Source: Nannocystis pusilla
Lineage (GTDB): Bacteria > Myxococcota_A > Polyangia > Nannocystales > Nannocystaceae
DNA length: 64,000 bases
Reading direction: 5' to 3'
Assembly (NCBI RefSeq): GCF_026626665.1
Contig: NZ_JAPNKE010000002.1
Location: 1,229,204 to 1,293,203, forward strand
Below the pieces are notes generated by a model. The model saw only the letters and a list, made by a program, of their open reading frames with translations, was not told the origin of the DNA and did no database searches. The position numbers were made by a program, and so were the translations under genes. Of the stretch, positions 16,060 through 34,094 are shown in pieces (position 1 is the stretch's first letter; each line of letters opens with the position of its first letter).

Positions 16060-16140
16060 AGGACATGTCCCTTGGAGAATGTCGGCCGGGCCATGTTGTA
16101 TAGGACATGGCCTTTAGGGCATGTCCTTCAGGGCATGGCG
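16060..16140. repeat. Motif cluster (GGACATGTCC / GGGCATGTCC / GGACATGGCC x5)
   Basis: Read directly, downstream of the vWA lipoprotein gene. Confidence 0.6.
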
Positions 16141-17714
16141 TGGAGGGTCGGCTGTAGCATGCCGGCGAGGCAGCCGAGGGCGGCGGTGTAGTCGCTGTCG
16201 CAGACGGACTCGATGCAGCAGCGCATGGCGCGTTCGTTGACGGCGGTGTCGGGGTCGTCGGGGATGTCGAGGGCCTGGCAGACTTCCTGGATCCGCCCGG
16301 GCGGGACGGCCTGGCCGGCAGGGCCGACGCAGCCGGGGCCGATGCCGAACTCGAATTGTTTGTCGGCCGGGGTGTCGGTGTCGCCGGGCAAGATGTCGTC
16401 GGGCTGCCAGTCGCGGTAGACGAGGGCGTCGACGCCGCCGGCGAGGGGCTCGAACGGAGGGGCGTGGTTATGCTCGGTGACCTGGGGGACGCCGCCGAGG
16501 ACGAGCATGACGACGTCCTTGCCGTGGTGCTGGCGCAGGTCGGCGAGGGCCTCGGTGTAGCGGGAGACGGGCTGGAGGACGTGCTTGTCCTCGGACATGC
16601 ACCACTCGTACTCGCCGTCGTCGTCGTCGTCGGCGCAGGTCATGCCGGCGTTCCAGCACACGGCGCTGGTGGGCTCGGTCCGCTGGCCGCTGCTCGGGTG
16701 CGACGGCCAGTACTTGCTGAACTCGGGGTCGTCGTGCAGCTTGGGGTCGAAGTAGGCGAAGTTGAGGGTGGAGCAGTCGGTCTCGTCGGTGACGATGACG
16801 ACCGCGAGCGGGGCGCCAGGGCGCAAGAAGGGCCGCTCGCCGATGTTCCACCGCGCTTCGAGGTCGAGCGCGCGCCGCATGGCCTCGAGCGGCGACTCCA
16901 TGCCGCAGCCGTCGATGCCCTGCGGGCCGATGCAGGCGAGGGCGTCGGCCGCGGGGTCGCCCATGCCGTCAGGGTCGATGACGTTGTGGCTGGTGGGGCT
17001 GAAACGAATGAACGGATCGGTGGGGACGGAGGGAGCAGCCTCGGCGCAGCGCGAGGTGCAGATCTCGGACATCACGGGCGGATCGGCGCCGAGGCCGGTA
17101 AATCGCGCCAGGCGGTCGGTGCACGGGGTGTCGATCGGCTGGCCGTCGGCGGCGTCGTAGTCGGGCTTCTCGAACGGCGTGCACAGCGGGTGCGGCACGT
17201 CGGTGGTGGTGACCATGATGTGCACGTCGGCGCCGACGAGCTGACCGTTGGCGTCGCTGAGGCCGCGCAGCAGCTTGACGAAGGCAGGGAAGCTGTCGGC
17301 GAGCTGGCTCTGCTCCTCGCCCATGGTGCCGGAGTTGTCGATGACGAACAGGACGTCGAGCTGCTCGCAGGCGCCGCCGTCGATGCAACCGGTCTCCGGC
17401 GGCGGATCTTCGCCGGTGGTGACGGGCTCGCCGGTGGTGCCGTCAGGCGGGTCGCCGGTGGTGTCCGGCCCGGCGGTGGTGGTCGGCAGCGGGTCGAGGG
17501 TGGTGTCGTCGACGTGCTGCGAGGTGACGACGAGGGTGTCGACGCTGATGGTGTCGGCGCCGTCGGTGTCGCCGGGGAGCTCGCCCAGAGGGCTAGGATC
17601 GAGGATGCAGCCGAGATGTACGAAAGGACAGGTGAGAACCACGGCGAGGCACGCCCTCGCCGCGGAGGCGATCGGGCTGCGGTGCGTTCGAGAAGTGGGC
17701 ACGGGTCGTCTCAC
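16128..17714 (-). CDS. von Willebrand factor A (vWA) domain lipoprotein
   Basis: Signal and lipobox ...VHLGC. T/P-rich linker. MIDAS motif VLFVIDNSGTM. Many Cys in the C-terminal half. Confidence 0.75.
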   Translation of the reverse strand: MRRPVPTSRTHRSPIASAARACLAVVLTCPFVHLGCILDPSPLGELPGDTDGADTISVDTLVVTSQHVDDTTLDPLPTTTAGPDTTGDPPDGTTGEPVTTGEDPPPETGCIDGGACEQLDVLFVIDNSGTMGEEQSQLADSFPAFVKLLRGLSDANGQLVGADVHIMVTTTDVPHPLCTPFEKPDYDAADGQPIDTPCTDRLARFTGLGADPPVMSEICTSRCAEAAPSVPTDPFIRFSPTSHNVIDPDGMGDPAADALACIGPQGIDGCGMESPLEAMRRALDLEARWNIGERPFLRPGAPLAVVIVTDETDCSTLNFAYFDPKLHDDPEFSKYWPSHPSSGQRTEPTSAVCWNAGMTCADDDDDGEYEWCMSEDKHVLQPVSRYTEALADLRQHHGKDVVMLVLGGVPQVTEHNHAPPFEPLAGGVDALVYRDWQPDDILPGDTDTPADKQFEFGIGPGCVGPAGQAVPPGRIQEVCQALDIPDDPDTAVNERAMRCCIESVCDSDYTAALGCLAGMLQPTLHAMP

Positions 17715-18436
17715 CCGCCGCGGGGGTCAGGCTGCGCGGCCGATCCATTACAGAGCGTGGCCGCCCGGTCGACCAGAGGCGAGCCCGGAAAACGCTGGGG
17801 GAAGCTGGCGACCAGCTCGCGGGCGGCGTCGCGCTGGCCGAGGGCGCAGCGGGCCTCGATCTCGAGCAGGCTGCGCTCGGCGGCCAAAATGCCGCCCGGG
17901 AAGCGCCGGGCGTGCTCCTCGATCAGCTGCAGGCGCTCGGCGGGCGCGGCCAGCTTGGCCCGCCGCAGCAGGTCGACCTCGGCGGCGACGGTGTCCTCAC
18001 GCGCAGGGCGGCGCGCCTTGGAGGTGTCCGCAGGGCCAGGCTTGTCGGTGGGCTGCGCCTCGGGTGCGACCTCGGGCGCCGGATCGGGCGTGGAGGCGCG
18101 GGCCGGATCGGGGCGCTGGACGGACTCGGCGGTCCGGGTCGCGTCGCCCTCGTGGGCCTGATACGGAGCGGCGACGTGGGTCTGCGGCGCCTCGCCGCCC
18201 TTCATGACGGCCCAGGTCAGGGCCAGCAGGACGCCGGCCGCCAAGGCGAAGCCGGCGAGCACCCGCGGGGCGAGGCGCGAGCGAGAGGGCGCTTCGTCGT
18301 CGAGGTCGTCGCCGCCGCCCTCCTCGACGCGCTGCTCGAGCGCGGCGAGGACTCGGTCGGCGATCGCGCGGTCGGGCGACTCGGCGCTGCGAAATGCGGC
18401 CAGGCGCGCCCGCGCCTCCGAACTCAGCGGTTCCAT
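17711..18436 (-). CDS. Putative anti-sigma factor (single transmembrane segment)
   Basis: Starts 13 nt inside the 3' end of the ECF sigma gene. Central hydrophobic helix LAGFALAAGVLLALTWAV. Pro/Ala-rich periplasmic region. Confidence 0.6.
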   Translation of the reverse strand: MEPLSSEARARLAAFRSAESPDRAIADRVLAALEQRVEEGGGDDLDDEAPSRSRLAPRVLAGFALAAGVLLALTWAVMKGGEAPQTHVAAPYQAHEGDATRTAESVQRPDPARASTPDPAPEVAPEAQPTDKPGPADTSKARRPAREDTVAAEVDLLRRAKLAAPAERLQLIEEHARRFPGGILAAERSLLEIEARCALGQRDAARELVASFPQRFPGSPLVDRAATLCNGSAAQPDPRGG

Positions 18437-18990
18437 GCTGCTTGCCTCCCATCCGCTCGTTCGGTCTCGGCGATGGCCCGCTCGAACTCGGCCCGAGCGG
18501 CCCGCAGACGCGAATAAACGGTGTTCAATTTGACATCGAGGGCCTGGGAGATCTCCGGCGCCGTGAAGCCCTCGAGGTCGGCGAGGATGAAGACCATGCG
18601 CTTGTCGTTGTCGAGGCTGTCGAGGAAGCGTTGCACGAAGTCGGCGGCCTCGGCGCGTTCGGCGACGCGCTCGCGCGGTTGATGGGTGTGGACGACGGCG
18701 AATGCCTGGATCCGGCGCTCGTGGCGCCGGAGGCCGCGGCGGAAGTCGCTGGCGACCCGCCGCGCGGTGCCGAACAGCCAGCTGCGCAGCGAGATCTGCG
18801 GGTCGAGGCCCGGGAGGCGGCGGTGCAGGACGAGGAAGACGTCCTGGGCGGCGTCCTCGAGCTGGTCATAAGGGACCCCGAGGCGGCGAAGGATCCGCCA
18901 GACGAGGTCGAAGTAAGCGTAGTACACGGTGGCGAACCCGCGCTGCGCGTGCTCCTCGGGGCCAGATATGGGCGGCTGAAGCTTCAGCAC
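18424..18990 (-). CDS. ECF-type RNA polymerase sigma-70 factor
   Basis: Region 2 (VFLVLHRRLPGLDPQISLRSWLFGTARRVASD) and region 4 (KRMVFILADLEGFTAPEISQALDVKLNTVYSRLRAAR) signatures. Confidence 0.85.
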   Translation of the reverse strand: MLKLQPPISGPEEHAQRGFATVYYAYFDLVWRILRRLGVPYDQLEDAAQDVFLVLHRRLPGLDPQISLRSWLFGTARRVASDFRRGLRRHERRIQAFAVVHTHQPRERVAERAEAADFVQRFLDSLDNDKRMVFILADLEGFTAPEISQALDVKLNTVYSRLRAARAEFERAIAETERADGRQAAWNR

Positions 18991-20061: not shown

Positions 20062-20360
20062 GGCCGCAGCAGCCTCGGATGGTAGACGCGAGCCCCGCCG
20101 GGACGCCAGGGGGCTGCGGCGGGGCGGCGCCGAGTTTGTCCGGCGTTCGGCGGCGGAGCGGTGAGCTGTCCTTCGGGACATGTGAACCGCGAGCGCGACG
20201 CGGCGCCCGGGGCGGAACCGCCCGGCGGTCGCGGGCGCGCCAGGACGCTCGGGGCGGTGTCCGCGGGGTGTCAGCGCGGGCGAGGCGGCGGCGTTGTGGG
20301 GCTGCACGCCGAGGCACGAGGCTGTCAAGCTGGCCCGTGCCCCGGCCCAAGGAGACGCGC

Positions 20361-22529
20361 ATGAACCCGTGGATGAAGTGGATCCTCCTGGCGACCCCGC
20401 TCGCGCTGACGCAGTGCCGCTCGAGCTCGGTGACCCCGATCGGCACGGTGACGCCCGACGGCAACAACAACGTGATGCTGGCCCACGGGCAAGGGGACGT
20501 GGCTTACGAGGCGCCGCCGCACACGTTCTCGGCGCGTCCGCATCCGCCGCGCAACCGGAGCGACGCGCCGCCGCCGAACCTGGCGGCGCTGCCGAAGATG
20601 GTGTCGCGGATCGATCAGTGCTACGGGCCGAGCGGCGGCGCCATCGCTTCCGGTGGCGGTCCCTCGGGCGGGGCGATCCCCAAACCGACCAAGAAGCCGG
20701 CGCCGCCGAAGCCGAAGTACAAGCAGGTGACCTACGGCGGCGGCTCGGCGCCTCCGCCCTCGCCGTCGCCGATCCAGACGACGCCGTCGGCCGGGGCGCT
20801 CGGCAAGGGCGAGGGGGCGGCGGGTCGCGGCAGCAGAGGGGGATTCGATGCCGGCGCAGCGCCGCCGCAGTCTCCTCCGCCGCCGCCGGTGACGGCGTCG
20901 AAGTCGGCGAACTCGCAGGGCGACGCCGACACGCGCCGGGCCGAGAAGGCCGAGCAGAAGAAGCAGAAGAAGGACCGCGGGCGCGACAAGGCGGCGGAGG
21001 AGCGCCCGGGCACCGCCGCGGCGGCGCCGGCCGAGGCGCAGGTGGCCCGTGACGAGGCGGAGGACACGAACTCGGTGGCGTACGAGCCGGTCCAGCAGGT
21101 CGGCGACGGCGAGGCCCAGTACAGCGACTGGGGTCAGGCGACGTACCTGTCGAACGACGACACGATGAGCATGTCGTCGGCGCAGCGGGTGATCTTCGCC
21201 ATCGACAAGTTCCTGCCGGTGCCGCTCGAGCACATCCGGCCGCACGAGCTGCTCAACTACTTCTCGTTCGAAACGGCCGAGGTGGCGCCGACCGACGACT
21301 TCTCGGTGCTGCCCGAGATCGCCAAGGATCCGAAGCAGGACGGGATCTACAACCTGGCGCTGGCGATCCGCGGGCGCCCGGTCGACAAGCAGGCCCGGCG
21401 CAACGGCAACCTGACGTTCGTCGTGGATCGCTCGGGCTCGATGAGCGACGAGGGCCGCATGGACTACCTCAAGCGGGGCATGCGGAAGATGATGGGCGAG
21501 CTCAAGACCGGCGACCTCGTCAACGTGGTGCTGTTCGACCACGAGGTGTGCGTGCCGGTGGAGAACTTCGTGGTCGGGCGCGACAAGCCGGAGGTGCTCG
21601 AGAAGGCGATCGAGCGCATGAAGCCGCGCGGGTCGACCGACGTGCACGCAGGCCTGACCCGCGGCTACGAGCTGGCCGACCGCGGCTACCAGCACACCTA
21701 CAACAACCGCGTGGTGCTGGTCACCGACGCGCTCGCCAACACCGGCAACACCGACCCGCGGACGATGTCGATGGTGGCCAAGTACTACGACGAGCGGAAG
21801 ATCCGCCTGTCCGGCGTCGGCGTCGGCACCGAGTTCAACGACGCGCTGCTCGACAAGCTGACCGAGCGCGGCAAGGGGGCCTACGTGTTCCTCGGCTCCG
21901 AGGCCGAGGTCGACGCGGTGTTCGGCCCGCGCTTCATCTCGCTGCTCGAGACGACGGCGATGGACGTCCACTTCCAGCTGCACCTGCCGCCGTCGCTGCG
22001 CATGAACGTGTTCTACGGCGAGGAGAGCTCGGCGGTGAAGGAGGACGTGCAGGCGATCCACTACTTCGCCAACACGTCGCAGCTGTTCCTGTCCGACCTG
22101 ATGGCGCGCGGCAAGAAGCTGCGGCCGCAGGACCAGATCATGCTGACCATCGAGTACGAGGACCCGGAGTCGGGGCAGAAGATGGTCGAGGAGCGGGCGT
22201 TCCAGCTGGCGGAGATCGAGCGCGAGGCCTACAACATCCGCAAGGGTCGCCTGCTGATCGCCTGGGCCGACCGCCTGGCGCTGATGGCCTCGCGGCCGCA
22301 GCCGATCGGCACGGCGCCGGTCGCAGGGGCGTGGATCGACGCCGACGGCTGGCAGCAGTGCGAGCAGGGCAAGGCCGACCTGCGCGACATGGCCCAGGGG
22401 ATGAACGACCCCGAGGTCACCCGCGTGCTGTCGCTGTGGGACAAGTTCTGCGCGCGCTACGAGCAGCCGCGCAACCCCGTGCGCCGCACCCCGGCGTCCG
22501 GGCCCGACGCGTGGCCGTCGGCCCGCTGA
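20361..22529 (+). CDS. vWA domain lipoprotein (~720 aa)
   Basis: AAGGAG RBS. MNPWMKWILLATPLALTQC lipobox. Long low-complexity linker. MIDAS motif LTFVVDRSGSM, then conserved vWA and C-terminal domain. Confidence 0.8.
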   Translation: MNPWMKWILLATPLALTQCRSSSVTPIGTVTPDGNNNVMLAHGQGDVAYEAPPHTFSARPHPPRNRSDAPPPNLAALPKMVSRIDQCYGPSGGAIASGGGPSGGAIPKPTKKPAPPKPKYKQVTYGGGSAPPPSPSPIQTTPSAGALGKGEGAAGRGSRGGFDAGAAPPQSPPPPPVTASKSANSQGDADTRRAEKAEQKKQKKDRGRDKAAEERPGTAAAAPAEAQVARDEAEDTNSVAYEPVQQVGDGEAQYSDWGQATYLSNDDTMSMSSAQRVIFAIDKFLPVPLEHIRPHELLNYFSFETAEVAPTDDFSVLPEIAKDPKQDGIYNLALAIRGRPVDKQARRNGNLTFVVDRSGSMSDEGRMDYLKRGMRKMMGELKTGDLVNVVLFDHEVCVPVENFVVGRDKPEVLEKAIERMKPRGSTDVHAGLTRGYELADRGYQHTYNNRVVLVTDALANTGNTDPRTMSMVAKYYDERKIRLSGVGVGTEFNDALLDKLTERGKGAYVFLGSEAEVDAVFGPRFISLLETTAMDVHFQLHLPPSLRMNVFYGEESSAVKEDVQAIHYFANTSQLFLSDLMARGKKLRPQDQIMLTIEYEDPESGQKMVEERAFQLAEIEREAYNIRKGRLLIAWADRLALMASRPQPIGTAPVAGAWIDADGWQQCEQGKADLRDMAQGMNDPEVTRVLSLWDKFCARYEQPRNPVRRTPASGPDAWPSAR

Positions 22530-22793
22530 CAACGCAGTGACACCGACGGCCGCGGCCCGACGCTTCGTCGCGGGGCCGCGGCCTGCGTCTGAAGCACGCC
22601 GCGCTGACGCTCCGCCGCGGGGCGACACGGCGGCCGTCGCTGCTTGCGGAGCGCGCTGCGACGCCGCGGGCGGGGCGCTCCGGCGCGGGTGCTGTCGGGC
22701 AGCCGAGGTCGTCGAGCCGGGCTGCCTGGCCTCGGGAGCATGTCCCCAAGAGCCTGCCCCTCGGAGCATGCTCCGAAGGACCTGCCCTGCGGG

Positions 22794-23549
22794 TCACATG
22801 CAGGGCGGCGAGGCCTCGATCGTGTGGCCGCAGTGGACCTGGGCCTCGGCCGGGCCGGTGGCGGCGATCGTGAGGTGGTAGAGGCGGCAGGCGAGGGTGT
22901 TGCCGGCGGCGTCCTCGGTGTTGTACGGCTCGGTGTCCATGAAGTTGGCGCAGGTGGCCATGCAGTCGCCGGGGCTCGGGTGCTCGGTCGGGCAGATCGA
23001 GGTGGCGATGGCGCAGAAGCCCTCGCAGCTCTGACCGCACGCGCCGGCGCCGCTGGGGCCGGCGTGGATGCAGTGCATGCCCGGATCGATCGAGGCCATG
23101 CCGGCGTGGTAGGCCCGGCAGGACAGCGAGTTGCCGGAGGTCTCGCCCGGCGAGCCCGGCGGGAGGCCGCCGCAGGCGCCGAGGCAGCTCTCGTTGCTCG
23201 GGTACTGGGCGTTGGTGCCGGTGCAGCTGCCCATCATCGCCGCGCAGTACATCTGGCAGCCGACGTCGGTGTCGCCGCCGGTGCTCGAGGTGCCGGTGGT
23301 CGGGTCGCCGGTGCTGGTGACCGGATCGACGTCGCTGGTGGTGGTCGAGGAGGTGGGCTCGCCGGAGGTCCAGTCGGTCGTGGCGGTGGTGGTCGTCGTG
23401 GTGGTCGTGACGTCGCCGCTGACCTGGGTCGCGGTCGTGATCATCGCGGTGGTGCTCGCGGCCGAGCCGGTGTCGTCACCGCCCGAGTCGTCGAAGCAGG
23501 CGGGGAGCAGGAGGGTACCGAGGAGGGGAAGGAAGGCGCGAGAGGTCAT
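22794..23549 (-). CDS. Cysteine-rich lipoprotein, paralog A
   Basis: MTSRAFLPLLGTLLLPAC lipobox, poly-Thr linker, ~130-aa C-terminal domain with ~16 Cys that aligns to the next gene. Ends ...SPPCM. Confidence 0.7.
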   Translation of the reverse strand: MTSRAFLPLLGTLLLPACFDDSGGDDTGSAASTTAMITTATQVSGDVTTTTTTTTATTDWTSGEPTSSTTTSDVDPVTSTGDPTTGTSSTGGDTDVGCQMYCAAMMGSCTGTNAQYPSNESCLGACGGLPPGSPGETSGNSLSCRAYHAGMASIDPGMHCIHAGPSGAGACGQSCEGFCAIATSICPTEHPSPGDCMATCANFMDTEPYNTEDAAGNTLACRLYHLTIAATGPAEAQVHCGHTIEASPPCM

Positions 23550-23600
23550 GCGTGGGCCTTGCGTGGCGGCGTGAACCGGCATGGTTGAAGGGACATGTCT

Positions 23601-24293
23601 TTACATGCAGGGCGGGGAGTCCTGGAGGGTGTGCGGGCAGTGCACCGCGGCGTCGGTCTCGCCGGTGGCGGCGACGGTGAGGTGGTAGAGGCGGCAGGCG
23701 AGGGTGTCGCCGGCGACGTCGCCGACGTCGAACTTCTCGTCGTCGGTGAAGCCGGCGCAGGTCGCGAGGCAGACATCGAGGCTGGGGTGCTCGCCCGGGC
23801 AGACGGACACCGCGAGGGCGCAGAAGCCGTCGCAGTTGTCGCCGCAGGCGCCGCCGCCGCCCGGGCCGGCGTGGACGCAGTGGGTCGGCGCGTCCATGGC
23901 GGCGGCGTCGGTGTGGTAGCGGCGACAGGCGTAGCTGTTGCCCGAGACGTCGCCGCGCGCGCCGGCGGGGAAGCTGGCGCAGGCGCGCTTGCAGCTGTCG
24001 GCGTTGGGGTACTGCGCCTGCGGGTCGAGACAATTCGTCATGACGTCGGCGCAGTAGTCGGCGCACAGCGCCTCGTCGACGCCGGTGGTCGAGGTCTCGG
24101 TGTCGCCGGAGGTGGTCGACGTCGACGTGGGCTCGGCGGTGGTGGGCCCGGCGGTGGTGGGCTCGAGGGTGGCGGCAGAGGTCGTGGTGGTGCTGCTGCC
24201 GTCGCTGCCGCTGCCGGTGCTCTCGTCCCCGGGCTCCGACTTGCAGGCGGCGAGCACGAGCGAGACGACGAGCGCGGTGGCCGGCTTCCCCAT
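23601..24293 (-). CDS. Cysteine-rich lipoprotein, paralog B
   Basis: MGKPATALVVSLVLAAC lipobox, S/T linker, same Cys pattern (CxxYCxxxMxxC...AQYP...SGNSxxCRxYH...HCxHAGPxGxGACG...CxGFCAxAxSxCPxEHPS...CxATCAxF...TLACRLYHLTxAATG...HCxHT...SPPCM). Confidence 0.7.
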   Translation of the reverse strand: MGKPATALVVSLVLAACKSEPGDESTGSGSDGSSTTTTSAATLEPTTAGPTTAEPTSTSTTSGDTETSTTGVDEALCADYCADVMTNCLDPQAQYPNADSCKRACASFPAGARGDVSGNSYACRRYHTDAAAMDAPTHCVHAGPGGGGACGDNCDGFCALAVSVCPGEHPSLDVCLATCAGFTDDEKFDVGDVAGDTLACRLYHLTVAATGETDAAVHCPHTLQDSPPCM

Positions 24294-24444
24294 GGCGATC
24301 CGCAGTCTGCGGCCCGCGCGATCGCGTTGTCAACCACGGGCCGTGGGGCCGGAGGGCCGCAGCGGCGCCGCTTGAGACCTGTCTGAAAGGACAGGTGAAC
24401 GGAGGGGGCGAGCGCGGGGCCGCGGCGCGGCGCGTGGGCGCGCG

Positions 24445-24765
24445 TCAGCGCAGGCAGACGTGGCTGATCTCCTCGGCCGAGCCCGCCCGCGCGATGCACT
24501 CGCGCGCGCCCGGCGGGAGCGACAGGCCCTCGCAGCGCTGCAGCTCGGGGACGAACCGCCGCGCGAACTCCTGCTGCTTGCGCCGCGTGAGCTCGGGATC
24601 GCGGTAGCCCTGCTCGGCGAGCTCGAGGGCGACGATCCGGTCGAGGATGACGGCGCAGTCGTCGGCGCCGGCCCGCTCCGAGCGACACGTGAGCAGCAGC
24701 AGCGCGACGCCCAGCGGGGCGAGGCGGCGCGGCTTCGGGGTCGGTGGCTGCTGCGGGTCGAGCAT
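24445..24765 (-). CDS. Small hypothetical lipoprotein
   Basis: LGVALLLLTC lipobox, 106 aa, unbiased composition. Confidence 0.45.
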   Translation of the reverse strand: MLDPQQPPTPKPRRLAPLGVALLLLTCRSERAGADDCAVILDRIVALELAEQGYRDPELTRRKQQEFARRFVPELQRCEGLSLPPGARECIARAGSAEEISHVCLR

Positions 24766-24813
24766 GGGCGGCAGTGAGTGGTCTTCAGGACATGTCTCAA
24801 AGTGCAGGCGACA

Positions 24814-25650
24814 TCAGCGGTCGCGGGTGAAGTGGACGCGGATGGCAGGCGAGGGGGCGCGGACCGGGCGGCCGTCGCGGTCGAGGGCGGGGGTGAAGCG
24901 GGTCCGGCGGGCGCAGGCGAGGGCGGCGGCGCCGAAGCCGTCGCCGGGGTCGGTGACGAGCTCGGCGGACTCGACGACGCCGCGGGCGTCGACGGTGACG
25001 CGGATCGTGGCGACCTGCTCGTCGAGCGCGAGGCCGTCGGCCTCGAGCGGCCAGGGGCAGTTCCACTCGTCGCTGGCGAGGGCGACCGGGCGCGAGCGAT
25101 CGACGGCGCCGGGGGAGGCGGGCGGTGGGCTGGCGGTGGGCGCGGGCGGGGGCGCGGGCGATGGCTCCGAGCTGGCGTTCGGGACAGGTTTGGTACCGGT
25201 GCCGGTCGAGCTGGTGGCGCCGCCGACGTAGGCGCTGGCGTTGCCGACGACGACGACGTCGCCGGTGAGGTCGAGGGCGCCCGGCGGGGCGGCGACGACC
25301 TTGCCGGCGCGCGCGGGGGCGGGCCGGGCCGGTCGTGAGGGGGCGGGCGGGGCGGAGGCGACGGCGGGGGCCGGCTCGCTGGCGGCTGGGGGAGGCTCGG
25401 ACGGCGGGGGCTCGGGCGGCGGAGGCGTTGGCTCGGTGCGCTCGACGTCGGCGAGCTGCAGGCGGGTCAGCTCGTCGTGGACGCGCGCGGCCATGGTGGC
25501 GCTCCAGGTCTCCAGCGTGGGCTGGGCCCGCAAGATCATCACCGCGACGCCGAGGTGCAGGAGGACCGCGACGACGATCGCGTGGTGCCGCCGCGAGGCC
25601 GGCGGCGCGGCGGCGGCGAACACCTGGGCGGCGATGCCCGGCCGAGTCAC
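24814..25650 (-). CDS. tonB: Energy transducer TonB
   Basis: N-terminal TM helix, Pro-rich spacer (PPPPEPPPSEPPP), C-terminal TonB domain. Confidence 0.7.
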   Translation of the reverse strand: MTRPGIAAQVFAAAAPPASRRHHAIVVAVLLHLGVAVMILRAQPTLETWSATMAARVHDELTRLQLADVERTEPTPPPPEPPPSEPPPAASEPAPAVASAPPAPSRPARPAPARAGKVVAAPPGALDLTGDVVVVGNASAYVGGATSSTGTGTKPVPNASSEPSPAPPPAPTASPPPASPGAVDRSRPVALASDEWNCPWPLEADGLALDEQVATIRVTVDARGVVESAELVTDPGDGFGAAALACARRTRFTPALDRDGRPVRAPSPAIRVHFTRDR

Positions 25651-25664
25651 CCGCGGACCTCCGC

Positions 25665-25940
25665 GAAGAACGTCTTATGAAGAGACAGGTGAGGGGCCGG
25701 GGCGCTCGTCCGGGCTCGTGCGGGCGCCTGGACGAGCGCGAAGGAGGATGGCCCGAGGGACAGGTGATGAGCCGCTTCGGGCCCGGCGGAGGATGTCTCG
25801 AAGGACGGGTCATGAGCGGCGGCGAGCGTTCGTGCCGGTGCCTGGGCGAGCGGGGGAGAGGATCGCTCGAGGGACAGGTGAGGAGCCGCGCCGGGCGCTG
25901 CAGAGGATGTCCCGAAGGACAGGTGATTCGGCGACCGGGT
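25665..25940. repeat. Tandem ~100-bp repeat x ~2.5 built from motif cores (GAGGATGTCYCGAAGGACRGGTGA / CGAGGGACAGGTGAKGAG), between exbD and tonB
   Basis: Read directly. Repetition also visible in junk ORF 25335..26006. Confidence 0.6.
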
Positions 25941-26380
25941 CACGGCGCCGCCTCCTGGCCGGCGGGGCCTGGCGCGGGGGACAGGGTGGCGAAGGCGACG
26001 CGGTAGACGCCGCCGCGCTGGAGGGCGTCGATGGTGGCGATCACGCGGCGGTGGGGGACCTCGCCGTCGGCGTGGATGACGGCGCGGACCTGCGGGGTGC
26101 GGGCGCGCACGGAGGCGGCGCGGGTGACGAGCTCGTCGTCGCCGGCGATCGGCTCGCCGTCGACGAGGGTGGCGCCGCGCTCGGGGACGATCACCGACAG
26201 GACGACCTGGACCTCGCCGGCGGTGCTGGCCTCCGGCAGGTCCATCTCGACCGCGGGGGTGACGATGATCTTGGCGGTGACGATGAAGATGATGAGCAGC
26301 ACCAGGACGATGTCGACCATCGGCGTGACGTTGATGCCGACGATCATGCCGCCCGGATCGCCGCTGCCGTGGCCGGCCAT
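25940..26380 (-). CDS. exbD: Biopolymer transport protein ExbD/TolR
   Basis: MAGHGS...INVTPMVDIVLVLLIIFIV. Start overlaps the exbB stop (ATGA). Confidence 0.85.
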   Translation of the reverse strand: MAGHGSGDPGGMIVGINVTPMVDIVLVLLIIFIVTAKIIVTPAVEMDLPEASTAGEVQVVLSVIVPERGATLVDGEPIAGDDELVTRAASVRARTPQVRAVIHADGEVPHRRVIATIDALQRGGVYRVAFATLSPAPGPAGQEAAP

Positions 26381-26382
26381 CA

Positions 26383-27069
26383 GCGCGCCTCCGGCTGGCC
26401 TTCGGGACCTGTCGTATCGGACATGTACGCGAGGACGAGGTTGGTGAGGGCCTCGCTGCCCTGGCACAGCGAGGTGATCTTGCGCTGGAAGGCGTTGTAG
26501 GCGGCGACGGCGGGGAGGGCGACGAGGAGGCCAACCGCGGTGGCGACGAGGGCCTCGGCGATGCTCGACATGACGGCGTTGGAGGCGACCTGCGAGGCGG
26601 CGCCGGTGCCCCCGCCGTGGCCGGGGGCGGCGTGGCCGAGCTCCTCGAAGGCCGCGATGACGCCGATGACGGTGCCGAGCAGGCCGACGAACGGGGCGTT
26701 GTTGCCGAGGGTGCCGAGGAAGATAAGGCCGCGCTCGAGCTGGCCGCGCTCGAGGGCGAGGGCGCTCTGCATGGCGTACTCGGCGGCCTTGGGCCCGCGG
26801 TCGGCGAGGCGCAGGCCGGCGGCGGCGATCGCCGCGGCGACGCTCGGCGAGGCGGCGAGCAGGTTTAGGGCGCCGTCGCGGTCGCCGGCCTGCAAGAGGG
26901 CGGCGACGCGGCCGGCGAGCACGCGCAGGTCGCCGCCGCGGGCGCGCAGGACCAGCCAGCGCTCGACGGTGAGGGCGACGCTGACGACCGAGAGCAGGCC
27001 GAGCAGCCACAGCACCCAGCCGGCGCCGGCGCGGAGGAAGAGCTGCTGGAGGGCGTCGATCGGGGTCAT
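26383..27069 (-). CDS. exbB: MotA/TolQ/ExbB proton channel protein
   Basis: LGTLGNNAPFVGLLGTVIGVIAAF...AYNAF signature. Confidence 0.85.
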
Positions 27070-27073
27070 GGGA

Positions 27074-27802
27074 TCATTCCTCGGCGGCCCAGGCGAACCG
27101 CGGCGGGACGGCGATCATGGCGAAGCGGACGGCGGCCAGGGCGTCGGCGGCGGGCGAGGCCGGATCTTCGGCGGCCAGGGCGGCGAGGTCGTGCGGGCCG
27201 GGGCCGAGCTCGGCGAGCTCGTCGAAGTCGACGCCGGCCCACCAGGCGGCGCCGTCGATCGTGACGTCGAGCGCGCCGCCGACGTCGAGGTCGAAGGGAC
27301 CGACCCGCAGGCCCTCGATGGTGCGGCTGCCGCGGAGCACGGGGGCGACGTCGAGGTCGGCGGTGAACTCGAAGGACATGTCCGCAGAGACAGCCGTGCC
27401 GGCGAACCGGGCCGCGCGCCCGCCCGGCGCGCCGTCCTGGGCGCCCGGCTTGGCCTGCGTCTTGAGCCAGGTGACGCCGTAGTCGAGCATGGCCGAGCGG
27501 ACCTGACCGGGCAGGACGTCGAGCTCGCCGAGCGCCTGAGGCCCGGGGTCGAGCAGGTCGACGGGGGCGACCGCGGCGAACTCGGCGGCCGCGGTGGCGC
27601 ACAGTTCGGAGGAGGCGGCCGCGGTGGCGCACAGGTAGAGCGGGCCGAGGCCGACTTCGGCGCGCGTGAGGGTCACGGTCCAGGCGCCCGCGGTCAGCTC
27701 GGCCGCGGCCCCGCGCGCCCGCAGCGGGGCCTGGAAGGCCGGCTCGCCGGTGGCGCCGCAGGCGGCGCAGAGCAGGAGGAGCATGGCTGGTCGGAGGGAC
27801 AT
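27074..27802 (-). CDS. Hypothetical lipoprotein
   Basis: MSLRPAMLLLLCAAC lipobox. 242 aa. Confidence 0.45.
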   Translation of the reverse strand: MSLRPAMLLLLCAACGATGEPAFQAPLRARGAAAELTAGAWTVTLTRAEVGLGPLYLCATAAASSELCATAAAEFAAVAPVDLLDPGPQALGELDVLPGQVRSAMLDYGVTWLKTQAKPGAQDGAPGGRAARFAGTAVSADMSFEFTADLDVAPVLRGSRTIEGLRVGPFDLDVGGALDVTIDGAAWWAGVDFDELAELGPGPHDLAALAAEDPASPAADALAAVRFAMIAVPPRFAWAAEE

Positions 27803-27814
27803 GCGCGAAAGGAC

Positions 27815-27880
27815 CGGTGACGAGGGACAGGTGCGAGAGGACAGGTCTGGAGGGACAGGCGGCTAGAAGTGCAGGGTGAG
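27815..27880. repeat. Motif cluster (GGGACATGCGCGAAAGGACCGGTGA, GGGACAGGTG, GGACAGGTC, GGGACAGGCGG)
   Basis: Read directly, between the lipoprotein start and the TBDR stop. Confidence 0.55.
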
Positions 27881-30524
27881 GGTGCCCATGACGCTGAGCG
27901 GGGGGCCGGCGGCGAAGTGGCGGGCGGGCAGGAGGGAGGATCGGGCGGGTGCCCCAGTCGGACACGAAGTTGTACTCGGTGGCGGCCCAGCGGCGGGCCA
28001 GCAGGTTGAAGGCCTCGACGCCGACCTCGACGACCGACCAGCGCACGGCGGCGCTGGCGTCGAGGAGGTGGACGGGGTCGGCGAACTGTCCGTAAGGCAA
28101 TGGCCGCGGGGACAGGTAGGAGTAGCCGAGGCCGACGCGCAGGCCGAGCGGGCGACCCTTGAGCTCCACGAGGTCCTTGTCGAGGCCGATGTCGGCGCGC
28201 ACGACGACCGGCGGGACGTAGGGCAGGAGCTGGCCGGGGACGTAGGGCGGGGAGGGGTTCTCGGCGGTGGCCGGCGGCGGGGCGCGCAGGACGGCGTGGA
28301 CGTAGGTGACGCTGCCGGCGGCGACCAGCCACGGGAGCGGGCGCGCGATCAGCTGGAGCGCGGCGCCGGCCCGCCGCGTCGGACCGACTTTCTCGAGCCG
28401 GCCCTCCTCGGGGTCGAAGGCGAGGTCCTGGGCGAGGAAGGTGGCGAAGCCGGCGGCGCTGAGCTGGAGGCGACCGCCGAGCGGGCTCATGCGCACGCCA
28501 CCCTCGGTGCTGTGGACCTTGGCGAACGGGGCCCGCTCGCCCTCGTCGAGCTGGCGCGCCTGCGGCGAGCGGTAGCCCTGGCCGTAGGCGGCGAACAGGC
28601 TGACCCAAGGGACAGGCGCGACCTCGAGGCTGACGCGCGGGCCGGCGGCCACGCCGGTGGCGGTGCGGCGGTGACCGACGAGGTGGCTCTCGACCTGGTA
28701 GGGGGCGATGAAGTTGCCGAGGCGGTCGTCGATGTCGTAGTGGAGGACGTCGGCCCGACCGCCGCCGCGCAGGCGCACGCGCTTGCCGAGGCGGAGGTCG
28801 AGGTCGCCGTAGAGGCCGACGTCGCTGGCGAGGACGGTGGCGTCGACGCGCCGGTCCCAGGTCTCGTTCTGCGGCGCTTGCAGCAGGTTCTGCGCCTGCT
28901 GGATGTTGTGGATCCGGGCGGCGGCGCCGACCTCGAGGGCGGCGTGGAACCACGGGGCGGGGCGCCATCCGGCTGTCCGATGGGACAGGCGCATGCCGCC
29001 GCCGAAGTCGCGGTTCTGCTGCTCGATGAGGTCGCCGCGGCCGACCCACTGCGGCATGACGACGCCGCGCTGGGTGTAGCCGGTGAAGTTCTCGCGGCTG
29101 TGGAGGTCGACGAGGGCGGTCCACACGGCCATGCGGGTGACCGCGCCGCCCTCGCCGCGGCGCTCGAGCTCGAGCGAGAGGTGGCCGCGCGCGGCCGAGG
29201 CGGACTGGCTGTTGGCCGAGGGGTCGCCGTAGCTGTCGTAGAAGCCGACGACGCCGGCGGCGACGTCGTCGCGGCGCAGGACGCCGGCGAGGCCGGCCCG
29301 CGCGGCGTAGGCGGCGACGTGGACCTTGCCGCGCCAGCCGCCCGCGGCCGAGAAGGCGAACTGGCCCATGGCCATGCCCGAGAGGCCGCCGCGGTTCATG
29401 CCGAAGCCGCGGGTGCGACGGACGGCGGCGGCGGCGAAGGTCTCGTCCTCCTGGCCCTTGGGGGCCCACAGGACGAGCTGGCGGAAGGTGGCGAAGGAGC
29501 CGCCGGTGCTGCGCAGCTGGATGCCGCGGCGCGGGACGGCGAGGTCGAAGTCGATGCTGCCGGCGACGGCGAAGTCGCCCTGCCGCGGGTCGTAGACGCC
29601 CTCGGTGACGCGGATCGATCGTACGGTCTCGGGGACGATCCAGTTGAGGTCGGCGTAGCCCTGGCCGTGCAGGTGCGAGACCTGGTTGAGCGGCAAGGCG
29701 CCGGCGGTGATCTCGATGTCCTGGCCGTGCGCGGCGTTGAAGCCGCGCAGGGTGATCTCGTGCGCCACGGCCTCGCCCTCGGCCCGCGCGACGTAGACGC
29801 CGGGGGCGCTGCTCAGCATGTCGGCGGCGCTCTGCCGCGGCGGGGCGGCGAGGACGTCGCGCTCGACGACGAAGTCGCTGGCGGCCCGCGGCGGCGGCCG
29901 CCGGCTGCGCGCGGCGACGTCGAGCACCGGCTCGGGCTGGCTGGCCGAAGGGGCAGGTTGGGACGGGCTGGCCGAAGGGGCAGGTTGGGACGGACCCGGC
30001 TGGCTGGCCGAAGGGACAGGTTGGGGCGGACCCGGCTGGCTGGCCGGAGGGACAGGTTGGGAGGGGGCCGGCTGGCTGGCCGGAGGGGCAGGTCGGGAGG
30101 GACCCGGTTGGCTGGCCGAAGGGGCAGGTTGCCCGGGCGGGGCCGAAGGGGCAGGTTCACCGGCGGGCGCCTCGGCGGGCTGGGCCGGCGGGGCGAAGTT
30201 GAAGGGCACGCGGATCTTGACGGCCACCGCGACGTCGTCCCGGCGCGCCGGGTCGAACCGCCACTGCTTGACCGCGGCGACCGCGGCGTCGTCGAAGGCC
30301 GCGCCGCCGCTCTTCAGCACCTCGACGGCGCCGACCCGCCCGTCGGCCTCGACGGTGACCGCCAGCTTGACCGCGACGACGTCGCTGCGCGCCTCGGCGA
30401 GCGGATAGACGGCGTCGACCCGGGTCCGCGGGCTCGGCGGGACGACCGCGGGCGCGGCCCAGCCCGGCGAGGCCCACAGGCACGCCGCGAGGCAGGTGCA
30501 GAGCGTGGCGCGAGCGCGTGGCAC
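27866..30524 (-). CDS. TonB-dependent receptor with N-terminal TonB-C-like domain and Pro-rich repeat linker; apparent 1-nt frameshift near 27935
   Basis: Signal peptide, TonB-like block (VKLAVTVEADGRVGAVEVLKSGG...AVKQWRFDP), SQPxPSxPAPPA repeats, plug and barrel. The true C-terminus ...PLSVMGTLTLHF* (terminal aromatic) is in a shifted frame. The listed ORF instead runs on to 27066 in the wrong frame. Confidence 0.8.
29930..30170. repeat. ~30-bp tandem DNA repeat encoding the Pro-rich linker of the TBDR (coding)
   Basis: GGCTGGCTGGCCGAAGGGGCAGGTTGGGACGG repeated ~7 times; translates on the minus strand to ...SQPGPSQPAPSASQP... Confidence 0.6.
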
Positions 30525-30749
30525 CGGGATCGAACGGTTAAGAGATCCCGGCCGAGGCCGTCAAGCGAGCGGGCCGCTCTCGCACTCGAGTCGCTGTTGT
30601 CAGCGGACTGCAATTGCAATGCGAGTGCATGTGCGGATGGCGCGCGAACAGGCTTCGGGCGGGCGAGAGGGGCGTGCGCGGGCGCGATGGGCCGATCGAC
30701 GGCGCGAACCGGCGGCGCCGGCGGTCGCCCGGTCGGAGTTAGGTCACGG

Positions 30750-32195
30750 TCAACCCGGCGGGCGGTCGCCGCCGGCGATGTCGGGCGCGCCGTCCATCAG
30801 CGGCCGCGGATCGCCGTCGACGTCGGTCCGCGGGTCGCCCTGCTTCCAGCGGGCGACGCCGGCGAGCGGGAGGCCGTCGCCGAACACGTGCAGGTCGCCG
30901 CCGTTCCAGTCCATGAAGATCTGCGGGACGGCCTGCGGCGGGATGACGCTGGTGTTGGTGTCGGCGTTCTCCAGCTCCGCGGCGCTGACGAGCGAGTCGG
31001 AGAGCTGGGCCGCGCTGGTGGCACAGGAGAAGGTGTCGACGAGGCCGTGGCTGAGGAGCGCCGAGTTGCGCGCGTCGAGCCCGGCGGTGCCGTCGAGGCA
31101 GGCGAACAGGCCCGACTCGTGCTGGGTGACGTCGCCGAGCGTGGTGTAGAGGAGGTTCGCAGTGCTGGCGGCGCCGATCTCGAGCGCGGCGCCCATGTTG
31201 AAGTGGGCGACGAGGCTGTTCTCCAGCCGCAAGGTGGCGCCCTCGGCGATGTGGATCGAGTAGAGGTTCTGCGCGAGCTGGTTGCGGCGGACCACGGTGG
31301 TGCACTCGGCGGCCGAGATGGCGCGACCGCCGTAGCCGACGATCCGGACGTCGTCGAGCCACAGCTGGGCGGCGGCGCGGCAACGGACCGCGGCGGCGCC
31401 CTGACCGTCTTCGATGCGGATCCGCGCGACGTAGAGCTCGCTGTCGATGGCGAGGTCCTGCATCTCGAGGCCGAGGAGGACGGCGGGCTCGACGTCGACG
31501 GTGAAGGTGGTGAGCTCGCTGCCGAGGACGGCGATCTTGCGCCCGCCCTGGTCGAGGTGGATGCCGGTCGCGTAGGTGCCGGGGAGCAGGTGGACGACGA
31601 GGTGCTCCGCGTCCTGGTGCTGGGACATGGCCTGGGCGATCGAGCAGCACGGCTGGTCCTCGGCGCAGGACTGCGCGCCGCAGACGAGCGCGGGGTCGAT
31701 GAAGGCGTGGCTGGTGCTGGCCTTGGGGAAGCAGACGCCGTCGTCGAGCTCGCAGGCGGTCTCCGGGCAGTCGTCGTGCTCGCGGCAGGCGCGGCAGACG
31801 TGGTCGACGGGGTCGCACACGCGGCCGTCGCAGGTGGCGCTGTCGATGCACTCGACGCACTGGCCCTCGTGACACTGCTGGCCGGGCCGGCACTCGGTGG
31901 CGCTGTCGCAGGGGCACACGTCGAGGTCGCAGGGCTCGCCGGTGGTGTCGGTGCCGGTCGAGGTGTCGCCGGTGAGGGTGACGGTGCCCTCCTCGCCGCT
32001 GGTGGGCCCGGTGGGGCCCAGGCTGGTGGCCGGGCCCTCGCCGCTGCTCGTGCTCCCGGGCCCGACCGTGGCGGTGCTCGTGGTGGTCGGGCCGTCGCTG
32101 CCGCCGGTGTCGGTGGTGTCGCTGCCCGCCGGGTTGAAGCAGGCGGCGAGGAGGAGGGATGACGCGAGGGACAGGGGGGATGTCTTCACGGTCAT
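30750..32195 (-). CDS. Secreted lipoprotein with Cys-rich module and probable parallel beta-helix region
   Basis: LLLAAC lipobox, T/S/G linker, Cys-rich block (CDLDVCPCDSATEC...CVEC...CRAC), then NxxG/right-handed beta-helix-like repeats. Confidence 0.55.
   Translation of the reverse strand: MTVKTSPLSLASSLLLAACFNPAGSDTTDTGGSDGPTTTSTATVGPGSTSSGEGPATSLGPTGPTSGEEGTVTLTGDTSTGTDTTGEPCDLDVCPCDSATECRPGQQCHEGQCVECIDSATCDGRVCDPVDHVCRACREHDDCPETACELDDGVCFPKASTSHAFIDPALVCGAQSCAEDQPCCSIAQAMSQHQDAEHLVVHLLPGTYATGIHLDQGGRKIAVLGSELTTFTVDVEPAVLLGLEMQDLAIDSELYVARIRIEDGQGAAAVRCRAAAQLWLDDVRIVGYGGRAISAAECTTVVRRNQLAQNLYSIHIAEGATLRLENSLVAHFNMGAALEIGAASTANLLYTTLGDVTQHESGLFACLDGTAGLDARNSALLSHGLVDTFSCATSAAQLSDSLVSAAELENADTNTSVIPPQAVPQIFMDWNGGDLHVFGDGLPLAGVARWKQGDPRTDVDGDPRPLMDGAPDIAGGDRPPG

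Positions 32196-32393: not shown

Positions 32394-34094
<1,701 letters not shown>

Follow-up and report, generated by a model that had tools for sequence, protein, structure and literature searches.

Two adjacent genes in the analysed window (the whole 64,000-nucleotide stretch of DNA), called A and B here, are tandem paralogues. Comparison of their sequences showed that each product should consist of a predicted lipid anchor, a disordered tether and one C-terminal all-alpha domain, and that both can be placed, indirectly through their homologues, in PF28386 (BfoA_C), a recently catalogued family. They thereby add members to a catalogued Pfam family without solved structure. The explanation we favour, as a possibility that falls short of probable, is that A and B are a pair of envelope lipoproteins which bind a metal or a redox cofactor. 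The genes, their parts and their neighbours are listed in the table.

Table. Features of the A/B locus, in window positions; gene coordinates of A and B include the stop codon, residue numbers are those of the encoded protein, and the signal peptides and the tether of A were read from the sequence.
Feature	Positions	Strand	Remarks
VWA-domain lipoprotein, convergent	20337..22529	+	VWA matches; conserved neighbour within Nannocystaceae
Gene A, downstream paralogue	22794..23549	-	251-aa lipoprotein
A BfoA_C domain, residues 98-251	22797..23258	-	16 Cys, both Tyr/His3 tetrads intact
A tether, residues 19-97	23259..23495	-	poly-Thr runs
A predicted signal peptide and lipobox, MTSRAFLPLLGTLLLPA-C18	23496..23549	-	+2 residue Phe
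Gene B, upstream paralogue	23601..24293	-	230 aa; ORF, GC3 0.97
B unit 2, residues 153-230	23604..23837	-	Cys 154, 158, 165, 175, 179, 200, 219, 229
B unit 2 tetrad Y203, H204, H218, H221; plus R201	23604..23837	-	
B unit 1, residues 77-152	23838..24065	-	Cys 77, 81, 88, 101, 105, 123, 139, 150
B unit 1 tetrad Y126, H127, H138, H141; plus R124	23838..24065	-	R124 invariant
B tether, residues 18-76	24066..24242	-	Thr/Ser/Gly/Pro/Asp/Glu-rich; predicted disordered
B predicted signal peptide and lipobox, MGKPATALVVSLVLAA-C17	24243..24293	-	+2 residue Lys
106-aa putative lipoprotein, 4 Cys	24445..24765	-	between tonB and B
TonB-family protein	24814..25650	-	TonB_C, E = 2.6e-6
ExbD/TolR	25940..26380	-	PF02472, E = 4.6e-24
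ExbB/TolQ	26380..27069	-	PF01618, E = 1.1e-27
242-aa lipoprotein	27074..27802	-	downstream of receptor; conserved in L005, L007, L009, L092
TonB-dependent receptor, N-terminal TonB_C-like domain	27863..30524	-	plug, barrel, TonB_C matches
DUF8331-type lipoprotein, 481 aa	30750..32195	-	Thr-rich tether, Cys-rich segment
Membrane Ser/Thr protein kinase	32394..34094	-	Pkinase, E = 6.6e-45; heads gene string

Genes in the window were called with a codon log-odds caller. The A and B ORFs have a GC3 of 0.96-0.97, which matches the expectation for real genes in a window of 72% GC. The listed ORF for A runs from 22794 to 23582 (262 aa) and uses an alternative upstream ATG at 23582; the start kept in orthologues, which are 251-253 aa long and begin MTSR or MISR, is the ATG at 23549 (251 aa, MTSRAF...). 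B is 94-96% identical to Nannocystis pusilla-type proteins. Its N-terminus reads MGKPATALVVSLVLAAC and that of A reads MTSRAFLPLLGTLLLPAC; the lipobox Cys is residue 17 of B and residue 18 of A. Both fit the pattern [LVI][ASTVI][GAS]C of bacterial lipoproteins, the Lgt/LspA substrates (VLAA-C17 in B, LLPA-C18 in A), and a lipobox-like motif lies within the first 50 residues of 118 of the 133 two-unit family members. The linkers that follow are 57-79 residues long and rich in Thr, Ser, Gly, Pro, Asp and Glu, and AlphaFold2 gives B residues 1-70 a pLDDT of 54-60, as for a disordered tether. At the +2 position most close orthologues of B have Lys (CK[ST]E.GDE, against CG in N. punicea), and those of A conserve Phe (CF[DKEN]D). 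In M. xanthus lipoproteins a +2 Lys is linked to inner-membrane retention (PMC3222651), a sorting rule that derives from Myxococcus, not Nannocystis.

The C-terminal domains of A and B align without gaps over 154 aa at 56% identity (BLASTP, E = 8e-57) and contain exactly 16 cysteines, which are invariant in 93 family members. The invariant columns in those members include all 16 Cys together with R124, Y203, H204, H218 and H221 (B numbering). The preliminary description of this DNA had proposed a tandem pair of paralogous lipoproteins with poly-Thr/Ser linkers and about 16 conserved cysteines, and these features hold, as do the motifs it quoted: CxxYCxxxMxxC, AQYP, SGNSxxCRxYH, HC[VI]HAGP.G.GACG, TLACRLYHLT and HCxHT...SPPCM-stop. 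Its figure of about 130 aa for the domain was too short. The two halves of the domain are homologous to each other (hhalign probability 99.4%, E = 4e-21), showing that the domain is a tandem duplication of a four-helix, 8-Cys unit of about 75 aa. A profile of the family finds both proteins with hmmsearch (B, E = 2e-77; A, E = 2.6e-73), and they are the only copies in the window. A is closest to B and B to A (168-184 bits, against 59-114 bits to domains D1 and D2 of a Sorangium fusion protein), so the tandem duplication and the Sorangium fusion are independent events. A Rosetta-stone argument from that fusion to the A/B pair was tried and failed on these scores.

The AlphaFold2 model of B has eight helices with a pLDDT above 95 across residues 74-230, those of unit 1 being 74-87, 98-105, 121-130 and 135-142. 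Cysteine co-loss among units (C1 and C5 together in 54, C7 and C8 together in 27) and the helix geometry point to four disulfides per unit: C1-C5 and C2-C4 (together a twin-CX3C hairpin), C3-C6 and C7-C8. In B these would be 77-105, 81-101, 88-123 and 139-150 in unit 1, and 154-179, 158-175, 165-200 and 219-229 in unit 2.

Direct scans of A and B against NCBIfam and a Pfam-A release older than PF28386 returned noise only (FZ_RECK, E = 0.019; a selenolipoprotein family, E = 0.11), and PDB searches by sequence and by profile gave no match. The family was named through the homologues: all 229 + 681 + 242 retrieved carry the precomputed Pfam label PF28386, including the close B orthologues P0001 and P0002, A-type orthologues (P0025), the A orthologue of N. 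bainbridge, and the two genes of L092, the N. pusilla locus. A and B have the family signature of 16 invariant Cys, CRxYH and HCxH motifs and C-terminal position. The domain had earlier been called unrecognised, with the remark that a confident match to a characterised family would make it ordinary; the first point is overtaken by the Pfam label, and on the second a named family was found while no characterisation of BfoA could be traced. A literature search on BfoA, bfo genes and PF28386 found no paper on them, only unrelated uses of the name (the bacterial foraging optimisation algorithm, BiFeO3 and strain names), and the source names of the homologues are all "hypothetical protein". The Pfam name implies that a protein BfoA exists, and its described role might differ from metal binding. 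The family comprises about 3,200 clusters at 50% identity, mostly in Myxococcota.

Helices 3 and 4 of each unit bear a tetrad of the form Tyr-His...His-x-x-His. The tetrad reads YHHH in 698 of 1,081 distinct units and is fully absent in 97 (134 under looser gap criteria); roughly one unit in ten, for the most part in giant surface proteins, has none of it. Its positions are associated with each other, with pairwise odds ratios of 30-250 and p <= 1e-82 over the 1,081 units, values uncorrected for phylogeny and for the relatedness of repeats within a protein, and none of them is positively associated with the invariant Arg. Tetrad-less units retain their cysteines (96-100% at seven of eight positions), Arg51 (98%) and Gly38; the eighth, C8, is kept in 78% of them, the same as in tetrad-bearing units. 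In two-unit proteins, the architecture of A and B, the tetrad is 93-100% conserved in both units, and in the consensus of the four-unit proteins of Polyangiaceae only one unit has it in full. These alignments show that the tetrad is retained or lost as one block, with the Cys/Arg scaffold unaffected; a ligand site behaves in this way, a fold determinant does not.

The domains to which BfoA_C is fused point in the same direction, most of them being extracytoplasmic metal or redox modules. Cupredoxin domains are fused to it in at least six clusters (P0176 has the H...C..H ligands), DOMON in three, a bacterial globin in one, DUF4331 in at least twelve and DUF2271 in two, and P0121 ends with a CxxCH motif. 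The tetrad is nearly always intact in the fusion proteins (20 of 21, 18 of 19, 6 of 6 and 26 of 28). The CxxCH haem-attachment motif of c-type cytochromes occurs in neither A nor B. Altogether the tetrad looks like a candidate metal-binding site, and the earlier guess of metal or redox binding gains circumstantial support from the block-wise tetrad and the cupredoxin, DOMON and globin fusions. Several points count against metal: no metal-responsive regulator or operator was identified, the invariant Arg beside the tetrad is unusual next to a cation site, and the tetrad is missing from the above tenth of units and complete in only one unit of the Polyangiaceae four-unit consensus. The tetrad could instead be a buried hydrogen-bond network.

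The same domain could also be a rigid, disulfide-stapled extracellular block for adhesion or for binding proteins or polysaccharides, with the Tyr, His and Arg residues touching a non-metal ligand or partner and with A and B as tethered binders at the surface or in the periplasm. The giant members of the family have the architecture of surface adhesins, with up to about 20 or more matched stretches (3,796 aa), interleaved PPC-like beta modules and a terminal lamin-tail domain, and tetrad-less units persist in these giants. The two-domain Sorangium protein is predicted as a single rigid body (pTM 0.85, pLDDT 93), and the neighbouring VWA and DUF8331 lipoproteins have similar tethers. However, three His and a Tyr conserved as a block are a more usual mark of metal sites than of interfaces with proteins or glycans, the recurrent cupredoxin, DOMON and globin fusions point to redox chemistry, and no carbohydrate-binding or adhesin family matched by sequence or fold. 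We regard adhesion, which the preliminary description had also suggested, as rather unlikely but as a rival to be reckoned with. That A and B are toxic lipoproteins, or polymorphic effectors of another kind passed from cell to cell, an idea which the preliminary description had raised as a toxin module, is scarcely credible. The lipoprotein anchors, the variable tethers, the Cys-rich module at the C-terminus and the myxobacterial host would suit it, but the domain is conserved rather than polymorphic and recurs in as many as about 20 copies within structural giants, no immunity-like gene is adjacent, and no toxin family matched in Pfam-A or NCBIfam.

The neighbourhood of the pair suggests other roles. 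In the window, in L005, L007, L009 and L092 and in part of L015, the genes for the TonB-dependent receptor, a lipoprotein, ExbB, ExbD, TonB, the 106-aa protein, B and A follow one another on the same strand. The position of the 106-aa gene is conserved in the Nannocystis loci L005, L007, L009, L015 and L092; neither its product nor the 242-aa lipoprotein has a Pfam or NCBIfam match. A scan over 22300-31000 turned up no terminators, and the single promoter-like site that it gave is weak and lies inside exbD; the scan does not settle the operon structure. A copy of GACATGTCC lies 2 nt past the B stop codon (23591-23599), with degenerate copies after the A stop. The motif copies noted earlier at the 3' ends of the genes are thus real, but they are not specific to the pair, since the sequence is an intergenic palindrome found across the whole window (69 matches against 11.5 expected); it was rejected as part of the A/B system.

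This gene order raises the possibility that A and B capture a cargo, like hemophores or metallophores, and deliver it to the adjacent receptor. The string from receptor to A recurs in at least five Nannocystis genomes, the Tyr/His site resembles HasA-type haem ligation, and the best sub-threshold NCBIfam matches of the receptor, besides MxcH at its N-terminus, favour haem or haemoglobin receptors (E ~1e-12) over siderophore receptors (2e-8). All of these family matches are, however, far below their cut-offs. In the window the receptor is frameshifted 26 codons before its end: compared with N. pusilla, 2 nt are missing near 27938, and its orthologues terminate in ...MGTLTLHF-stop. B is separated from the 106-aa gene by a gap of 151 nt, and the fold is unlike known hemophores. 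The TonB block is missing beside the pair in N. exedens (L006) and in the metagenomic locus L085, and no TonB linkage was seen in any non-Nannocystis locus compared; linkage to a TonB-dependent receptor thus holds in part of Nannocystis only, and delivery to this receptor seems quite improbable.

Other neighbours of the pair recur as well. The cluster of VWA lipoproteins (c3) has members in 8 loci and, beyond these, in L085 and L092. The 481-aa lipoprotein is 34% identical (E = 6e-50) to an L085 protein annotated as PF27011 (DUF8331), and a gene of this type lies directly upstream of the BfoA_C pair in L006 and L085. The kinase at the head of the string in Nannocystis is also found upstream in L006, L092 and Polyangiaceae operons. 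In Polyangiaceae the operon is conserved while its flanks differ: a Pkinase protein (477-580 aa, one TM), a secreted TPR/PEGA-like protein (~335-355 aa, TM at the C-terminus) and a two-domain BfoA_C protein. It was found in Sorangium and in Polyangiaceae MAGs whose protein is ~47-49% identical to that of Sorangium, and in L093 and L094, with unrelated flanks, the last two genes overlap start to stop. Large kinases precede BfoA_C proteins of ~600 aa in L053 and L063. In other lineages the BfoA_C gene stands beside a gene for Peptidase_M50B, a membrane protease of a type able to act in transmembrane signalling, or beside nothing recognisable.

From these operons one may suspect a sensory role: outside the cytoplasm, BfoA_C lipoproteins would act as co-sensors for pathways of eukaryotic-like Ser/Thr kinases, with the domain, ligand-bound or not, signalling via a membrane partner to the kinase encoded upstream. 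But myxobacteria have very many kinases, and the kinase cluster (c1) accounts for 6% of the genes across all loci; chance should therefore place some of them next to BfoA_C genes. The kinase in the window is 8 genes away, and many loci have none. We consider co-sensing unlikely as the explanation, and it is compatible with metal binding rather than exclusive of it. The genomic context of BfoA_C is heterogeneous and the receptor in the window is frameshifted; both also count against metal or cofactor binding, our best reading.

If A and B do bind a metal or redox cofactor in the envelope, the tetrad ligand would be a metal ion or metal cofactor, copper being most likely and iron/haem or zinc the alternatives. 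With one tetrad per unit, each protein would therefore present two sites on a flexible leash. By extension of the M. xanthus sorting rule, B (+2 Lys) would be retained at the inner membrane and A (+2 Phe) would go to the outer membrane, and the pair would sample the periplasm from both sides. Their most likely role would be to bind, buffer or hand over, within the envelope, a metal or a redox cofactor. The family at large may be coupled to membrane Ser/Thr kinases, which could read the loading state of BfoA_C. A broader proposal, which we hold as doubtful, is that the unit is an undescribed extracytoplasmic His3-Tyr metal centre on a twin-CX3C-stapled four-helix scaffold without a solved relative. 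It would serve Myxococcota in three ways: on tethered lipoproteins of both membranes, passing on or buffering copper or some other metal across the periplasm; as the sensory input to membrane Ser/Thr kinases; and in multi-copy form within giant surface proteins.

Were the tetrad a metal site, a family concentrated in Myxococcota would contain a new metalloprotein fold; these are soil predators with large genomes, and little is known of how their envelopes handle metals. Some of their many orphan Ser/Thr kinases would also gain a candidate ligand-sensing partner. Otherwise BfoA_C is one more lineage-specific disulfide-rich surface module, already in Pfam.

Among known systems, the Frizzled-like CRD (FZ_RECK, PF23298) is likewise helical, disulfide-rich and extracellular; its weak match spans B residues 72-108, and membership was rejected, with neither a Pfam score above cut-off nor a fold match. 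DUF4215/Dicty_CTDC repeats occur in the same organisms and, in some proteins of ~600 aa, in the same polypeptide, N-terminal to BfoA_C; a DUF4215 or CGDG identity for A and B was discarded, as in the preliminary description, since no Pfam match appeared at E <= 10. HasA-type hemophores ligate haem by Tyr and His. BfoA_C shares with HasA and the helical hemophore Rv0203 a Tyr and His cluster, secretion and, in some genomes, a receptor neighbour, but has no fold or sequence similarity to them, and its TonB linkage is lineage-specific. The copper storage proteins Csp1 and Csp3 (DUF326) are four-helix bundles lined with free thiolates, to which Cu(I) binds. BfoA_C is also helical, Cys-rich and possibly copper-related; it differs in that its cysteines are lost in pairs like disulfide partners and its candidate ligands are His and Tyr, and the A/B domain matched DUF326/Csp neither in Pfam nor by fold. 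The C-terminal place of the domain in both proteins is in line with the family name. The unit also resembles the twin-CX3C or CHCH hairpins of small Tim and Cox17-type proteins: it likewise has C-x3-C on helix 1 and on helix 2, and its outer Cys pair is co-lost, as expected for antiparallel helices stapled by two parallel disulfides.

Genes B (upstream) and A (downstream) are minus-strand neighbours whose GC3 of 0.96-0.97 and codon bias are those expected of genuine genes at the window's 72% GC. The preliminary description had read them as a tandem pair of lipoproteins. This is confirmed, and the identity and architecture of both proteins are nearly certain. The start of A is better placed at the ATG at 23549 (251 aa), which is favoured by orthologues and by a codon-score caller. 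In each protein a lipobox closes a short signal peptide (VLAA-C17 in B, LLPA-C18 in A), and is followed by a tether of 57-79 Thr, Ser, Gly, Pro and acidic residues and, at the C-terminus, by a 154-residue domain containing 16 cysteines. Alignment of one domain with the other needs no gaps and gives 56% identity (E = 8e-57), and every motif quoted earlier is present. A six-frame profile search found copies of the domain in the window in A and B only. Each is the other's closest relative, so the duplication is confined to Nannocystaceae and separate from the two-domain fusion in Sorangium.

Features in the window; numbers give the order in the string of genes sharing a strand with A and B
Feature	Position	Strand	Length
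1, Ser/Thr kinase	32394-34094	-	
2, DUF8331-type lipoprotein	30750-32195	-	
3, TonB-dependent receptor with N-terminal TonB_C-like domain	27863-30524	-	
4, lipoprotein		-	242 aa
5, ExbB		-	
6, ExbD		-	
7, TonB		-	
8, lipoprotein		-	106 aa
9, gene B	23601-24293	-	230 aa
10, gene A (as listed)	22794-23582	-	262 aa
ECF sigma factor-like gene, then 241-aa gene	17711-18990	-	
Palindrome GGACATGTCC or near copies (examples)	6476-6547, 16061-16126, 23591-23600, 24788-24797, 35833-36078, 41840-41964, 52593-52615		

The earlier interpretation is partly supported as a whole; its view of the domain as unrecognised has been overtaken by PF28386, a recent Pfam entry named BfoA_C in contig annotations. Scans of a 2025 copy of Pfam-A and of NCBIfam (June 2026) returned only noise for the domain, and sequence and profile searches found no PDB relative. 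In a large protein collection, the precomputed label PF28386 is carried by 229/229 homologues of the B domain, and at an N. pusilla locus collinear with the window both genes of the pair are labelled BfoA_C. The domain is already catalogued, in a Pfam release later than the copy scanned. Literature searches for BfoA and PF28386 found nothing biological. Nearly all members are named hypothetical in NCBI, UniRef and JGI, and one from Woesearchaeota is titled a cupredoxin-family protein owing to its other domain. A and B are new members of a catalogued family whose fold is structurally unsolved, and their candidate metal site is interesting but unproven.

When a profile was run against 1.84 billion cluster representatives, 3,224 family proteins passed E <= 1e-3, of which 914 reached E <= 1e-30. 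Among one-genome-per-species contigs, all 80 retained loci belong to Myxococcota or to deltaproteobacterial or unclassified MAGs, and include Nannocystis, Sorangium, Polyangiaceae, Kofleriaceae, Haliangiales, Sandaracinaceae and Minicystis. The family extends beyond Myxococcota, since P0227, a membrane-anchored protein whose three BfoA_C units are joined to a cupredoxin-like domain at the C-terminus (L089, 1900-3342), is on a contig that bears an archaeal L18e-L13-S9-RpoN operon and is assigned to a Candidatus Woesearchaeota MAG. Single-domain proteins make up 133/274, and another 34 are two-domain fusions of ~375 aa, the form typical of Sorangium and Polyangiaceae. The giants reach 3,796 aa and 20 matched stretches, both in P0121. 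Like P0122, P0124 and P0125, it is secreted, alternates BfoA_C units with ~138-aa PPC-like modules, and has a lamin-tail domain at its end.

AlphaFold2, given a 93-sequence alignment, predicted eight helices for residues 74-230 of B (pLDDT 94-99) and disorder for residues 1-73. An hhalign comparison shows the first and second halves of the domain to be homologous (probability 99.4%, E = 4e-21), so the true unit is a four-helix, eight-cysteine module of ~75 residues, and BfoA_C is two of them. For the two-domain protein of Sorangium, the prediction is one rigid body (pLDDT 93, pTM 0.85). From the 274 family proteins, 1,125 units (1,081 distinct) were excised and aligned to a single unit model. 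Seven of the eight cysteine positions are 87-100% conserved in every unit class, and the eighth, which in second units lies outside the unit-1 model, is 91-100% conserved where aligned; conservation of the Arg in CRxYH is 96-100%. C1-x3-C2 lies on helix 1 and C4-x3-C5 on helix 2. Cysteines go missing in pairs: 54 units lack both C1 and C5, and 27 lack both C7 and C8. Together, helix positions and co-loss imply a twin-CX3C hairpin with C1-C5 and C2-C4 disulfides, and we infer C3-C6 and C7-C8 by elimination.

Helices 3 and 4 of each unit also carry a Tyr-His...His-x-x-His tetrad at unit positions 53, 54, 65 and 68 (Y126, H127, H138 and H141 in B unit 1; Y203, H204, H218 and H221 in unit 2). Among the distinct units it is YHHH in 698 and wholly replaced in 97 (134 under looser gap criteria), with few intermediates. 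Its positions co-vary pairwise with odds ratios of 30-250 (p <= 1e-82; the counts are uncorrected for shared ancestry of units, so these values overstate independence), and none of them is positively linked to the invariant Arg. Tetrad-free units keep the cysteines, Arg51 and Gly38 at unchanged frequencies. Proteins built of two units, as A and B are, conserve the tetrad at 93-100% in the first and second unit alike. This block-wise behaviour, unlike that of the scaffold, looks like the signature of a candidate ligand site dispensable for the fold. In the model of B, a single turn of helix 4 separates H138 from H141, and H127 has the mirror position on helix 3, beyond a four-residue turn, so clustering of the three histidines is geometrically plausible.

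Generic surface modules aside, BfoA_C is repeatedly fused to metal or redox domains of extracytoplasmic type: at least six clusters have a cupredoxin/plastocyanin-like domain, three DOMON, at least 12 DUF4331, two DUF2271 and one a bacterial globin. A CxxCH motif (CGQCH) terminates P0121. The cupredoxin ligands H...C..H are kept in P0176, and the Cys is lost in P0227. By motif count the tetrad is intact in 20/21, 18/19, 6/6 and 26/28 cases in metal/redox fusion proteins, against ~65% of all units. That BfoA_C is instead a non-metal binding or adhesive building block seems somewhat unlikely. Our preferred, though tentative, reading is that A and B are tethered envelope proteins with putative metal or cofactor sites. 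In both units of each, a Tyr/His3 site would accept a metal ion or a metal-containing cofactor. Copper is the favoured candidate on account of the cupredoxin/DOMON company and the His3 chemistry, with iron/haem or zinc as alternatives, and the pair may serve in periplasmic binding, buffering or hand-over. That A and B are toxins is very improbable.

Membrane kinases might read out these sites. In Polyangiaceae and Sorangium a conserved string of three genes encodes, in order, a membrane Ser/Thr kinase, a secreted TPR/PEGA-like protein of ~335-355 aa whose C-terminus holds a TM segment, and a BfoA_C protein of two domains (loci L052, L056, L064, L066, L067, L071, L073, L075, L077, L080-L083, L093 and L094). 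Start-to-stop overlap joins the second and third genes in L093 and L094, amid unrelated flanks. BfoA_C as a kinase co-sensor, a role compatible with metal binding, is rather unlikely. In another myxobacterial lineage (L001, L012, L033, L047, L086, L087), a single-domain BfoA_C gene is followed on the same strand by a Peptidase_M50B membrane protease gene, after ~20-25 nt in L001, L086 and L087. Next in most of these loci comes a convergent short-chain dehydrogenase gene.

Most close orthologues of B have Lys at +2 (CK[ST]E.GDE; CG in N. punicea), and those of A have Phe (CF[DKEN]D). In M. xanthus, 8/12 inner-membrane lipoproteins have +2 Lys, and a +2 Lys signal sequence sent mCherry to the inner membrane (PMC3222651). 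If this rule holds for Nannocystis, B would be on the inner membrane and A on the outer.

The motif copies reported at the 3' ends of both genes are real, with GACATGTCC 2 nt past the B stop codon and degenerate copies past that of A. They belong to a palindrome that is not specific to the pair. This palindrome, GGACATGTCC, has, with at most one mismatch, 69 matches in the window (11.5 +/- 3.4 expected), clustered in intergenic gaps and often immediately 3' of stop codons. It looks like a putative genome-wide intergenic repeat or operator-like element, and being window-wide it is uninformative on A and B.

A VWA lipoprotein gene is convergent with the end of the string. Just past it are the ECF sigma factor-like and 241-aa genes, conserved across Nannocystis loci (neighbour clusters c23, c24). 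The window's gene order is repeated in N. pusilla, N. punicea, N. bainbridge (one BfoA_C gene only) and strain RBIL2. In N. exedens and a metagenomic relative, kinase and DUF8331 genes lead to B and A and then the VWA gene, and the TonB block is absent; the block is thus an insertion, or a loss, amid older neighbours, and a non-obligate partner of the pair. That A and B are a dedicated hemophore-like pair feeding the receptor, as their neighbourhood in the window might suggest, is improbable. Where the block would stand, N. exedens has two tandem DUF8331-type copies (L006, 6461-9471). The DUF8331-type lipoprotein of the window is built like A and B, with a lipobox and a Thr-rich tether, and its Cys-rich body is a relative of Pfam DUF8331, sharing 34% identity (E = 6e-50) with the family member at L085.

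The receptor gene is frameshifted 26 codons short of its end, at ~27938, where the window has GATCCTCCCTCC and N. pusilla GATCCCCTCCCTCC, a 2-nt deletion. The conserved ...MGTLTLHF-stop ending is lost and the frame reads through the next gene to 27066; orthologues are intact at 872-875 aa. Either the gene is a pseudogene or the assembly has an error in a C-run. At the receptor's N-terminus, a TonB_C-like domain and a Pro-rich spacer precede the plug, an arrangement shared with the N-terminal part of MxcH, the myxochelin receptor model.
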